Shown here: in pieces, positions 1 through 3,586 of the stretch
Layout of the letters: each line of letters begins with the position of its first letter
Position numbering within the stretch: position 1 is the first letter of the stretch
NCBI GenBank assembly: GCA_964016885.1
Contig: CAXHJY010000307.1
Coordinates: 62,001-126,000 of the forward strand
DNA length: 64,000 nt
Source of the DNA: Eledone cirrhosa
Lineage: Eukaryota
Direction: 5' to 3'
Program-made: the position numbers and the translations under genes
The notes under the pieces: generated by a model
What the model saw: the letters and a program-made list of their open reading frames with translations, nothing else
Databases searched by the model: none
What the model was told of the DNA's origin: nothing

Positions 1-1948
1 CTTCTGACATATTATTGGACTTTTCTAAAAGGATACCAATATTGCAACTGTTTAACAATATTCTGTGAAGATTTTCATTTTTAAGTTTTCCCAATTCGTT
101 ACCAAATGTAGTTCTCAAACCAAAATATTTTTCCAGATTATTTCCAATACTATTAGCCAGTTCTTCACTATTTGGGGATGTTACAATATAGATATCATAA
201 AGAAAATTTATTATGTTGTCATTATTTGAATGTTCTGGCATTAATTCATTACTGGATTCTGACTTATAGCAATGATACAGATCATAACACTTTCTGAAGT
301 ACATTTTACTAAATTTAATTTGTTTGGAAAGGAAATGCTTAGCTAAATTCATATAAATTTCTTTCTTGAGCTTTATGTGAATTTCATGAGGCTTATCTGT
401 TAACTTCAGATACATATTAGCTTTAACATATTCCTTGTTTTTACAGAACTTTCTTATCTTCCGTGAAAATTCACTCTTTTCACATTTCTGGAGAAGTTTA
501 TCATAAAGTTCTCCATCAGGCAGTTGTTCTACTGACTGAATTATTTCCAAAAGATGACTATTATCTTCCTGACAGCCATTTTCATATATATTAGTCATCA
601 TTTTCTTTATTTGCCAAATGTCTTTCAGCCTCTCTTGGAAAGGAAGAAATTCTATAGCAGCATTAACAGCCTTAAGAAACATATCTGCTCCGTCAACTTT
701 TAATTCTTCTTTTATCTCGTCATTGTTTTCTTCATCTGCTTGTAAATAATATAATTTACCCAACACAATGTAAAATTTAACAAAATCTACTTCATTATCT
801 GGTTTATATTTTTCCGAGTACTTCATAGCATTTTTATATTCTTTCAGAGATATATATAATAATAACAAATCATAAACAACAGCTGAATTTGCGGGACCAA
901 TTTTAAGAGATTGTTCATAATGATATTCAGCTTTGTCAATAAATGTATCTCTTTTAAACACCAGGAAGTCTTCAGGACATTTAAGTAAGCGTCCAATCAA
1001 ATTTTCTTCATTTGAGAAATTTGGCTTTTTTTTGAAATAAGAATTTGAATTTGATTTTTTTATATACAATAAGCCAAGATGATGATGGGAATATGACGTT
1101 TCATTAATTTCAATTGCTTTTTGAAACAATTTTTGTGATATTTCAAAGTTATGATTAATTCTATAAAATTCAGCAGTTTTTTCCAAAACAAAACGATCAT
1201 TAGATGAAATATGAAGAGCTTGCTGAAAGTAGGGTTTGGGTTGAGAGAATTTTTCATGAAATAGCCATGTCATTTTAAACAAACCCAACAGTGTTAATGT
1301 TCGTGCCATTAGAGTTTTGTTAACATTGTGGGGGTAAGCCTGTCGTATTTTCTCTAAGCACTGGAATGCCTCTTTAGTATTTTTAATTTTTTCGTCTTTA
1401 TCAAGTGATTTTTTATCCATGCGATAGTGTAACAAAGCTATTGAAAAAAGGTTTTTATATTTGTTTGGACAAACATCAGAAATCTCTTTCAAAATTTTAA
1501 GAGCAATATTATAACTCTTAAATGATGATGACCTACTTAAACAGTAACAAACATTACTTTTACCTTCAGCTTCTAACTTTGCAAAATCCTTTCTTTTCTG
1601 AAGTTTCTCAAGATGATCCAAAACCTCAGTTAGTTTATTTATATTTTCATTGTACAAATGAATGAATGCTAGATTAGTTAATGCCACTAAATTGTCTGGA
1701 TTTTTCTTTTGAACTTCAGTGGCTAATTCTTCAGCTGCAGTTTGTTTCTTTGTTTCCCACATAAGAAATACTTTGAGATTTATCAAATAAGTCTCATCTG
1801 CTGAATCCAATATGTCAGAATTTGATGAATTTTCAATTTTTTGGTAAAGGGCCAACCAAGAATCTTTATTGAAATCAAATGTATAACTCATTATATTTGG
1901 AAAAATTATAATTCTTTCCCGGTACAATTGTAGTGCACTTTCAATATC
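1..1948 (-). CDS. TPR-TIR protein (IFIT/TTC22-like TPR array + TIR), copy A, large exon 2; runs off window start inside the TIR domain
   Basis: Near-identical to 18186-20145. The only indels seen versus copy B are in-frame (3 nt near 1268, 9 nt near 95) and no stop was seen. Acceptor ttttcactcag|GAT at 1948. Absent from the ORF track, presumably because the stop lies outside the window. Confidence 0.85.
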
Positions 1949-2080
1949 CTGAGTGAAAAATAGAAAGTGTATTAGATATATCATTATTTTTATCAATCTC
2001 ATAAAATATATTTATCAGATATGATTTTGTTTATTAATTGAAACAAGGTTAAACCCTTTTTGTATCTGATAGAGCTGATG

Positions 2081-2434
2081 TACTCTGGGGACCAAATAAT
2101 AGGGGGGGGGGGGTGAATAAGCAGAGGAGCTGGAATAAATGGGGTTGTTGAAAAAACAAAGGGGGAGCTGGAAATCAGTAATTTTTCTAGGTTGTCTCCA
2201 TTGATTTTTTTTTAAAAACTAGAATTAGTCGTTTAGTTTACATATTGAGACCACCCCAACTCATCCTATTTATTTCATGACATACGAGATTTCTAGTAAT
2301 GTAGTTTTTTGTCATGTATAATTTAGCTGGAATTAGATTAACAGAATTTAATAAGCATGGGGGTGGGGTGGAAAAATTTGAAAAATTAATAAGTGGGTGT
2401 GTACGGGGGGTGGCATTATTCGAGACCCGAGAGT
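2081..2434. mobile_element. Tc1/pogo-type MITE in the TPR-TIR intron (also 20278-20632; partial relative at ~51873-52032)
   Basis: Imperfect TIRs tactctggggaccaaataat / attattcgagacccgagagt; a dispersed related copy is present in the window. Confidence 0.55.
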
Positions 2435-2938
2435 TGTTGATGCTCTTTTTAGACTTCTACAATTTCATGTCAAAGTGGGAAGAAATGGAGTGCTAGACAG
2501 TGCAAGTTTTGGAATAGAAGGATTGGTTAGAATGTTAAGTACTATCTAACATGTATGTTGGTGTGTATGTGATTATTTCTAATAATGTATATGTGTGTGA
2601 TGACTACTATATTACTCTATATATGTGTGTGTGTGTTTTTAGATCCTTGACAAGGTCTTGGTTGGCAAATTTGAACTCATTCCATGATCTTCGCCACTCT
2701 TCCTTCAGATCAAAGTTAATCTTTAACAGATATTTTTTTGTCCAAATAAGGATAATGGAAATTTTTTAGGCAAGCCAACATGTTCGCAGCATTACCACGA
2801 GTGATGGCAAGGCTAAGGCGCTGAAACAACAAACTTTAATTCAGACAGTATTTATAGGATTTTGCTAAATATTCTTACCCCAGCACATTAGCCACAAAAT
2901 AGACTGATAGACTGATACCGAAAATAAAATACGGTAAA

Positions 2939-3496
2939 TTTATAGAAATATATCTTCACCGATTTTCGTGGAAAATAATTATTTTTTAATCGTGTGCTAT
3001 CAATTAAACTTACCTCCTAATATGGCGCAAAGGAGTTTTTGCCCAGTGAAAAGGGCCGAGGGGATAATCCTCAAACGTTTCACCCCGCCGTCCCGGAGTT
3101 TTCTTTACCATTTTTTTCCCCTTCCTTTTTCTGAGTGCTACCTCCTAACATGCTTGCAAAAGAAGGAAAATGGAGGGACACACACGGCATTGTTCCCACA
3201 CCCTCCTGGTGTTTTCTTTATACCCTAATCCTAACCCTAACTCAAACCCCTATTCTAACCTAATCCCAATTCTAACTCAGGGGCTTTACAGCATGTTTGG
3301 AGGTAATATTAGTTGGTAGCACACGGAAAAAAAGGGGGGGGGGAGTTGAACGAGACTTCCCGGGGAAAAGTCCTTTGTACCATATTAGGAATTAAGTTTA
3401 ATTGATAGCACACGATGAAACAAAACAAAACAAAAAAACACTCACACAGAAAATAAATTATTTCCCGCTGAAATCAGTGAAGTCATTTTTCTATAA
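2939..3496. mobile_element. Non-autonomous DNA transposon with ~100-bp TIRs and internal (CCCTAA)-like repeats (also 21140-21697)
   Basis: ttatagaaa...atcgtgtgctatcaattaaacttacctcctaatatgg is inverted at ccatattaggaattaagtttaattgatagcacacgat...tttctataa. Confidence 0.65.
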
Positions 3497-3532
3497 TACA
3501 ACTTAAAATACTGTATGTATTCGGATACTTAC

Positions 3533-3586
3533 GGGAAATACTAATTCTTGTAATTTTCTGGCGATGTTCTCTGTTTCTTTCTCCAT
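3533..3586 (-). CDS. TPR-TIR protein copy A, short coding exon 1 (MEKETENIARKLQELVFP)
   Basis: aaaacATGG start, exactly 18 codons, perfect gtaagt donor; phase 0 matches the exon 2 acceptor. Confidence 0.75.

Follow-up and report, generated by a model that had tools for sequence, protein, structure and literature searches.

The window, which is the whole 64,000-nucleotide stretch of Eledone cirrhosa DNA analyzed here, is AT-rich animal DNA in which microsatellites are abundant. As the original prediction stated, it contains a direct duplication, whose copies A and B are 99.69% identical and each carry, on the minus strand, a gene for a protein with a TPR region and a C-terminal TIR domain (Table 1). 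The gene is complete in copy B, where 18 codons of exon 1 and 718 codons of exon 2 encode 736 amino acids. IFIT genes have a short first exon followed by one large coding exon, and the copy B gene matches this layout. The frame of copy A leaves the window at residue 667, and its course beyond the edge is taken from a short-read contig (contig 28 of run X4, described below). At 10620, a short repeat that continues in copy B breaks off in copy A, where the interior of a transposase-like frame follows directly; we take these elements to be a SINE and a Tc1/mariner transposon, respectively, and Pfam gave no match for them (10590–10991). The right flanks of the two copies differ, and the window does not contain a single N. 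Judged from its sequence, the junction is probably that of a tandem duplication with a unit of about 18.2 kb, of which it has the expected look. No difference had been noticed across the LINE inside the copies, and full alignment bore this out, as nothing differs between 4021 and 7992.

Table 1. Features of the duplicated locus, in window coordinates.
Feature	Position	Strand	Basis and remarks
Copy A, duplicated segment	1..10620	+	blastn self-match to 18186–28826, 99.69%; extends past the left edge of the window
Copy B, duplicated segment with visible counterpart	18186..28826	+	blastn self-match, alignment
Diverged block	1..4020		11 substitutions, of which one is a complex change in the intron; two in-frame deletions and a 1-bp indel; 2.7 substitutions/kb
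Near-identical block	4021..10620		No substitutions; a single 1-bp indel (7993) and length changes in two microsatellites (9307, 9395)
Right end of copy A, probable tandem-duplication junction	10590..10991	-	Alignment
RNase H frame of a degenerate LINE (~4.6–7.4 kb)	6470..7003	+	Pfam RNase_H, E = 1.2e-5; A and B the same
Copy A exon 1, coding part (18 codons)	3533..3586	-	GT donor next to it; L18P at 3534; splice seen in X4 contig aligned to copy B
Copy A intron, GT-AG	1949..3532	-	A/B differences at 2094, 2403, 2513, 2913
Copy A exon 2, TPR region and first half of TIR	1..1948	-	Open frame, runs past the window edge
Copy A, site of the 9-bp (DYI) deletion, BB loop	95..96	-	Alignment; also in X2, X3 and X4 contigs
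Copy B exon 1	21734..22075	-	CDS 21734–21787; transcript extends to the equivalent of 22075 or beyond
Copy B intron	20146..21733	-	Absent from X4 contig 28
Copy B exon 2 with stop	17989..20145	-	Protein of 736 aa: IFIT-like TPR region and TIR
Copy B TIR domain, residues 596–736	17992..18414	-	AlphaFold2 pLDDT 90.8; top Foldseek and VIA-align matches are TIR domains
Copy B DYI codons 638–640, βB-αB (BB) loop	18280..18288	-	Alignment placement equally 18281–18289

The assignment of the C-terminal domain to the TIR family, and of the residues deleted in copy A to its BB loop, was borne out on a predicted structure; Pfam alone misses the TIR. Neither TIR nor TIR_2 matched copy A or B, where TPRs are the only Pfam domains, and a phmmer search with the TIR alone against PDB sequences returned 0 matches. 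TIR_2 gave weak matches below the cut-off in at least 2 of 47 relatives (best 5 families per protein). The alignment-guided AlphaFold2 model of the copy B domain has strands and helices alternating from βA to αE, and in this model the domain has the TIR fold, a five-stranded parallel sheet with surrounding helices. It matched IL-18Rβ with a VIA-align Z of 14.6 (rmsd 2.3 over 127 residues), TRIF with 14.5 and MyD88 with 13.8, the TIRs of TIRAP and SARM1 being also among the matches at 13.8–14.6; the best 15 rows all contained a TIR, and Foldseek agreed (E 3.7e-6). The family profile matched the TIR of chicken TLR15 (E = 3.1e-6), and Atlas feature matches to TIR clusters were 0.91–0.92.

In the model, the DYI tripeptide lies between βB (model residues 37–39) and αB (50–59), the position of the BB loop. 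The same C-terminal domain was found in 64 of the 116 relatives fetched, and named carriers include gastropods and bivalves. Across these 64 aligned sequences the loop consensus is D-V-L-P-G (D in 38, P in 26, G in 38); D and G occur together in just 26 of them, so that the loop already varies within the family. Counted from the conserved Gly ahead of βB to the loop Gly, the segment has 14 residues in 55 relatives, 13 in one and 15–16 in eight; that of copy A, with 11, is shorter than in all 64. The deletion takes out the conserved Asp of the family's D-x-x-P-G loop. Box 2 of scaffold TIRs is RD-φ-φ-PG (PMC7075850). Measured against (R)D-x-x-P-G, copy B keeps D and G and has neither R nor P, whereas copy A has lost D, is three residues short and no longer shows the motif. 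MyD88, MAL, TRIF and TRAM resemble copy B in fold (Z 12.6–14.5) and its family in the Box-2-like D-V-L-P-G loop, at an identity of 12–16%; relative to the Box 2 of these scaffold adaptors, copy B carries Glu in place of Arg and Leu in place of Pro, and copy A additionally lacks D-Y-I. No conserved Glu was found in αC, where NADase TIRs carry their catalytic Glu (at most 12 of 64 in the αC columns, in which the alignment is gappy), so a scaffold TIR is likelier than an NADase. At the position we judge equivalent by the catalytic motif, copy B and its Octopus relative P0001 (see below) have His. In MyD88 assemblies the intrastrand interface is built by the BB loop, and the D197A substitution prevents them from forming (PMC8110528); going by the model, the deletion likely impairs the copy A TIR in signaling or assembly. 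The BB loop may matter less here than in MyD88, given that the family loop is variable and that copy B lacks the usual Pro.

The full-length copy B model (pLDDT 89.4) had IFIT1 and IFIT5 as its best structural matches, and the best 13 listed Foldseek rows were vertebrate IFIT1 or IFIT5 (E 1e-9 to 4e-8, TM to target 0.59–0.69). IFITs were also the best natural-protein matches of the family profile (E ~1e-28), colinear over three stretches. On both model and profile, the TPR superhelix qualifies as homologous to the IFIT family. It differs from vertebrate IFIT1 and IFIT5 in sequence (15–18% identity) and in shape (rmsd ~8–10 Å), and the octopod protein has extra helices and the TIR. The IFIT family consists of TPR-only proteins of ~470 aa, as PDB chain lengths also indicate; the octopod protein has 736 aa and a C-terminal TIR, and we therefore class it as IFIT-related rather than as an IFIT. 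The column equivalent to what we take to be R255 of IFIT1 holds Glu. Two family-conserved arginines, R157 (45 of 54 rows) and R194 (50 of 54), align by eye with K151 and R187 of vertebrate IFIT1, which lie at the RNA 5' end (PMC3950709). ISRE-like sites with one mismatch occur at 3949 and 3971 and carry little weight, as the window has 62 of them.

All eight coding differences listed in the original prediction are present, one of them under the wrong label: position 453, given as synonymous, has the codon AAA in B, encoding K518, and AGA, encoding R, in A, which makes it the non-synonymous K518R. The tally thus becomes six non-synonymous and no synonymous substitutions (6N:0S) plus two in-frame deletions. 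From B to A, the other substitutions are Y481D (565), T445K (672), P320S (1048), S253F (1248) and L18P (3534), the last in the final codon of exon 1. The deletions in copy A remove R246 (1268) and D638-Y639-I640 (B 18280–18288), and both keep the reading frame, as had been claimed. In exon 2, five of the substitutions fall in the TPR region, at sites with little conservation in the alignment of the wider family. Noncoding differences lie in the intron and the distal block (Table 1) and a short way upstream of the ATG at 3778 and 4020; that at 2913 is a change of net 3 bp. Microsatellites aside, they number 6–7 across 8.6 kb, in keeping with the similar count first put forward for noncoding DNA.

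Of seven listed runs, three of them RAD (X5–X7), the short-read contigs of four (X1–X4) were compared with 10200–22500. X1–X3 come from one sample, which may be the assembly's own; their contigs are mosaic and DNA-like (they cross the intron), and therefore check base calls, not the population. X4 is a second sample, taken as RNA from the splice and the low intron depth (2–4 versus 50–60). The A letter was found at 14 of 14 sites. The B letter was present in a main contig at 9 of the 14 and at residual depth at 3 more, with a contig break at 20711; at 18647 it left no trace in any of the four runs and may be a consensus error. In the main contigs of X1–X3 the A letter made up 28 of 40 calls (the sites are not independent), and this single DNA-like sample contains both the A and the B letter sets. 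Consensus or sequencing error, an objection foreseen from the start, is thus ruled out as the origin of the A letters. A-to-I editing is ruled out as well: just 2 of 10 simple substitutions are A/G (coding strand, B to A), and the letters are present in intron-spanning DNA-like contigs. Within 10299–10490, part of the distal block, the listed contigs show no alternative letter. Depth was ~6–10 in residual B-type contigs, 8.7–10.8 in a unique piece of the spacer and ~20–33 in shared sequence.

The sequence of copy A is found as a spliced transcript. X4 contig 28 (2515 nt) covers 17961–20145 and 21736–22075, lacks the intron and carries the A letter at all 8 exonic sites listed, both deletions included; relative to copy B it has 5 other letters and 12 gap letters, all explained, and no further difference up to the stop. 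The A sequence is thus spliced and intact to its stop codon, and a stop or frameshift beyond the window, the other objection foreseen, is ruled out if the contig derives from copy A. No B letters were seen in the X4 contigs, which can lose minor variants.

The original prediction held that coding sequence had diverged more than its surroundings and read this as diversifying or balancing selection. Against all duplicated noncoding DNA the CDS is nominally enriched (p = 0.009 for substitutions, p = 0.002 with non-microsatellite indels added). Against its own intron (p = 0.38), or intron and proximal flank together (p = 0.49), there is no coding-specific excess: substitutions per kb are 3.0 in the CDS, 1.9 in the intron, 4.6 in 3587–4020 (5' UTR and proximal flank) and 0 in the distal 6.6 kb (upper bound 0.56). 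Locally, then, divergence is alike in CDS, intron and proximal flank, a pattern that had been named in advance as speaking against the claim. All 5 noncoding substitutions lie in the intron or in the 434 bp before the ATG, which makes this a contrast between a gene block and a distal block, not between coding and noncoding DNA. Noncoding sequence alone shows the split: its 5 substitutions all lie within the 2.0 kb that end at 4020, and the 6.6 kb beyond have none (p = 0.0007); for all substitutions the split is 11 to 0 (change-point p = 0.00025). We conclude that the feature needing explanation is the block boundary rather than a coding signal. The diverged block spans CDS, intron, 5' UTR and ~150 bp further upstream, and its left end falls beyond the window.

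The ratio of substitutions does not point to positive selection either. At ω = 1 just 1.0–1.5 synonymous changes are expected and the probability of 6N:0S is 0.16–0.29, so neutrality fits. Values of ω of 0.3 or less are rejected (P at most 0.033), and the lower 95% bound on ω is 0.36–0.55. Strong purifying selection is thereby rejected, and 6N:0S does not distinguish neutrality from positive selection. With CDS, intron and 5' flank diverging alike and the ratio compatible with ω = 1, the inference of diversifying or balancing selection is unsupported. Divergence of the block is 0.27% (synonymous 0, intronic 0.19%), which gives no sign of old balanced alleles; it lies below the heterozygosity of >1.1% reported for O. 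vulgaris (PMC6472339), another species' value, and on that comparison is at the level of alleles.

The nearest TIR-bearing relative, short of proven one-to-one orthology, is Octopus bimaculoides LOC106878804 (XP_014783632.1; P0001), which likewise has 736 aa and the same architecture, at 53% identity over the whole query. Its loop, RDYILG, is intact, as in copy B and unlike copy A. The IFIT1B-like and IFIT5-like proteins of O. vulgaris, O. sinensis and O. bimaculoides (P0002–P0007, P0009 and P0117; 474–521 aa) end before the TIR. The TPR region of P0002–P0007 is 44–47% identical to the copy B protein, and in a quick tree (27 rows, TPR region only) these TIR-less proteins as a whole fall in the same clade as the octopod gene (support 100). 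TIR-less Octopus paralogues are sister to the TIR-bearing P0001 in this tree (SH-aLRT 86), and the TIR-less P0009 lies outside that group, which suggests two TIR losses in octopuses, provided that the annotations are complete. Oyster TIR-TPR proteins have been counted as a class (PMC4346834), and an Aplysia survey lists such a class by name (PMC9334734). The octopod protein may belong to this published class of cytoplasmic molluscan TIR proteins (TIR-TPR or ecTIR-DC). Listings of open-licence literature brought up no publication about IFIT-like TPR-TIR proteins; outside that search lay the ecTIR-DC survey referenced by PMC6321704, which possibly covers the family.

Compared with P0001 and other Octopus proteins, copy B keeps the ancestral state at L18, P320, Y481, DYI and probably in length at R246; at site 518 copy A matches the outgroup, and sites 253 and 445 are uninformative. 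Polarizable changes fall 5 on A to 1 on B, which is not significant (p = 0.22), and the quick tree places all change in the first 500 residues on the A branch. All 7 A/B indels leave A shorter (p = 0.016), a bias for which we offer no explanation. Among 574 candidates, 0 were shorter homologues of residues 400–718, which leaves S253F, T445K and K518R with no closer outgroup.

The reading we lean toward, with little more than even confidence, is that a young tandem duplication of ~18 kb had its gene block swapped from another haplotype, leaving an expressed copy A whose BB-loop deletion likely weakens TIR-TIR assembly. A recent tandem duplication would have produced two identical units, of which the distal 6.6 kb would still be so. 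A crossover or gene conversion near 4–5 kb would then have replaced the 4-kb gene block in one of the copies with that of another haplotype, bringing in the differences in coding sequence, intron and promoter as one block. The differences would be allele-level variation and not changes selected between paralogues, and weak constraint on the protein (ω above ~0.4) would suffice for 6N:0S. Recombination is likelier than selection as the cause of the A/B pattern, because intron and CDS have diverged to a similar degree between the copies. Counting against it are the lack of any synonymous change and the fact that both coding indels are in frame. Two equal allelic lineages are also not expected to be as lopsided as A and B, with changes at 5:1 and 7 of 7 indels shorter in A, which counts against an origin from another haplotype.

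The alternative that diversifying or balancing selection maintains a BB-loop-deleted A beside an intact B, as a dominant-negative decoy, filament terminator or paired sensor, is unlikely but deserves weighing. Six non-synonymous changes, no synonymous one and two in-frame deletions would suit it, although 6N:0S is non-significant against ω = 1 and a net 3-bp change is also found in the intron. The deletion hits a conserved loop of the family, whereas the five TPR-region substitution sites are poorly conserved. The diverged block coincides with the transcription unit, but within it the CDS is not in excess over intron or proximal flank, and old balanced alleles should have raised the synonymous and intronic divergence above the 0 and 0.19% seen here. 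Copy A is transcribed, with no B letters in the X4 contigs, and its share of the main-contig calls, over non-independent sites, means that A is not necessarily the rare one. In oyster, immune genes are often duplicated in tandem, and positive selection on such duplicates has been reported there (PMC4346834). A selected decoy role for copy A is possible. We also observe that the diverged block ends near the 5' end of the transcript, as gene-centered selection would predict too.

Two further explanations concern the assembly. That A and B are two alleles of one locus, set in tandem by the assembler, is very unlikely. Their divergence is at allele level, one sample has both letter sets and the second shows A only, but the window is gapless and the right flanks of the copies differ, with A joined mid-element. 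The 10620/10621 junction, with repeats on both sides, is not displayed in the short-read contigs; the depth of B-type and spacer contigs, nearer 1/3 than 1/2 of shared depth, is a weak hint of three copies, contig depth not being copy number. Least probable is an older, evenly diverged duplication whose distal identity reflects merged reads of both copies: the three short indels of the distal block are typical residue of consensus noise and the B letter at 18647 is perhaps a consensus error, but letters specific to each copy survive in the gene block, where short reads confirm most of them, which shows that the copies were kept apart there, and 10299–10490, the sole distal stretch covered, has no other letter in the listed contigs.

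On the reading we lean toward, the two proteins can be thought of as follows. The TPR cradle would bind a cytosolic ligand, with RNA 5' ends as the leading guess, and the protein would act as a sensor-adaptor whose non-catalytic TIR assembles head-to-tail through the BB loop. Loss of the Asp and two neighbors should harm the BB face of copy A and spare its EE face; copy A is predicted to keep the cradle, to signal poorly or not at all, and perhaps to cap assemblies. It may represent a step toward the TIR-less IFIT-like paralogues of other octopuses. A stronger version, which we hold to be distinctly improbable, is that this is a molluscan IFIT-homologous sensor of RNA ends coupled directly to a scaffold TIR, in which the new, expressed BB-loop-null copy is favored: it would bind ligand, attach to TIR filaments by its intact EE face without being able to lengthen them, and so cap the signal of its tandem partner. 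If true, the locus would be a snapshot of the transition from signaling IFIT-TIR receptors to TIR-less IFIT-like effectors, which octopods seem to have made repeatedly.

As evidence of selection the locus is ordinary, a recombination block with small numbers. Set against the oyster literature cited above, in which TIR-TPR proteins and tandem immune duplication are already known, what is new here is the expressed BB-loop-deleted copy. The useful remainder is a natural pair of 99%-identical proteins, with and without the BB-loop core, from an uncharacterized family of molluscan TPR-TIR proteins in which the repeats most resemble those of vertebrate IFITs. These two proteins offer a ready test of signaling through TIR assembly and of RNA sensing, and a positive result would tie IFIT-like RNA recognition to invertebrate TIR signaling.

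The lengths of the two duplicate copies differ at seven indels (95, 1268, 2094, 2913, 7993, 9307 and 9395), and copy A is the shorter at every one of them (7/7, p=0.016). Short-read contigs confirmed four of the seven. The intron change at 2913 is complex (A 2895-2930 vs B 21093-21131; A equals B minus 3 bp in net length): copy A carries a perfect short tandem repeat where copy B has unique sequence, a pattern as would be expected from slippage or templated repair. Among the single-letter differences, the copy B letter at 18647, which encodes K518, sits inside a T run, is unlike the state in the Octopus outgroup and was found in none of the four runs compared. 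This letter is possibly an assembly error.

Pieces of a Penelope-like element lie immediately downstream of gene B, with frames resembling RT at 16430-17463 and a GIY-YIG match at 13125-13694 (Pfam search). Because a contig of run X4, which we read as RNA, spans 16062-17911 at a depth of 164 with one other letter relative to the window, this element, or a near-identical copy, may be transcribed. On the other side of the TPR-TIR gene, a motif scan of the window placed a pair of ISRE-like sites 75-110 bp past the 5' end of another contig of X4, the spliced one that covers the gene; matches of this kind, with one mismatch, number 62 across the window.

Further features are listed in the table below. 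The two probable exons may be parts of one neighbouring gene, and 11011-11427 appears to be a fragment related to the reverse transcriptase frame.

Features located in the window
Feature	Position	Strand	Remarks
Probable exon, weak PH-domain match	44904-45269	minus	E=0.004, Pfam search
Probable exon rich in Tyr/Pro/Gln	about 38600-38700	minus	
Reverse transcriptase frame	52390-53538	minus	PHD-like finger embedded; Pfam search
Penelope-like element pieces	15465-17911 and 13125-13694		
Two ISRE-like sites	3949-3982 (B 22150-22183)		one mismatch
Fold-back inverted repeat	6279-6474 (B 24480-24675)		within degenerate LINE
Fold-back inverted repeat	14362-14497		
Fold-back inverted repeat	35365-35738		
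Minisatellite	37734-38235		24-bp unit, 21 copies
Minisatellite	40148-40352		22-bp unit, 9 copies
AT-type microsatellite	48046-50777		2.7 kb

Among the related proteins fetched, seven TIR-less Octopus IFIT-like paralogues from three species (P0002-P0007 and P0117) share a common end point ahead of the last helices and the TIR. Another relative, P0011 (1941 aa), has one TIR domain at 612-759 and a second at 1773-1912, and looks like two TPR-TIR units joined end to end.
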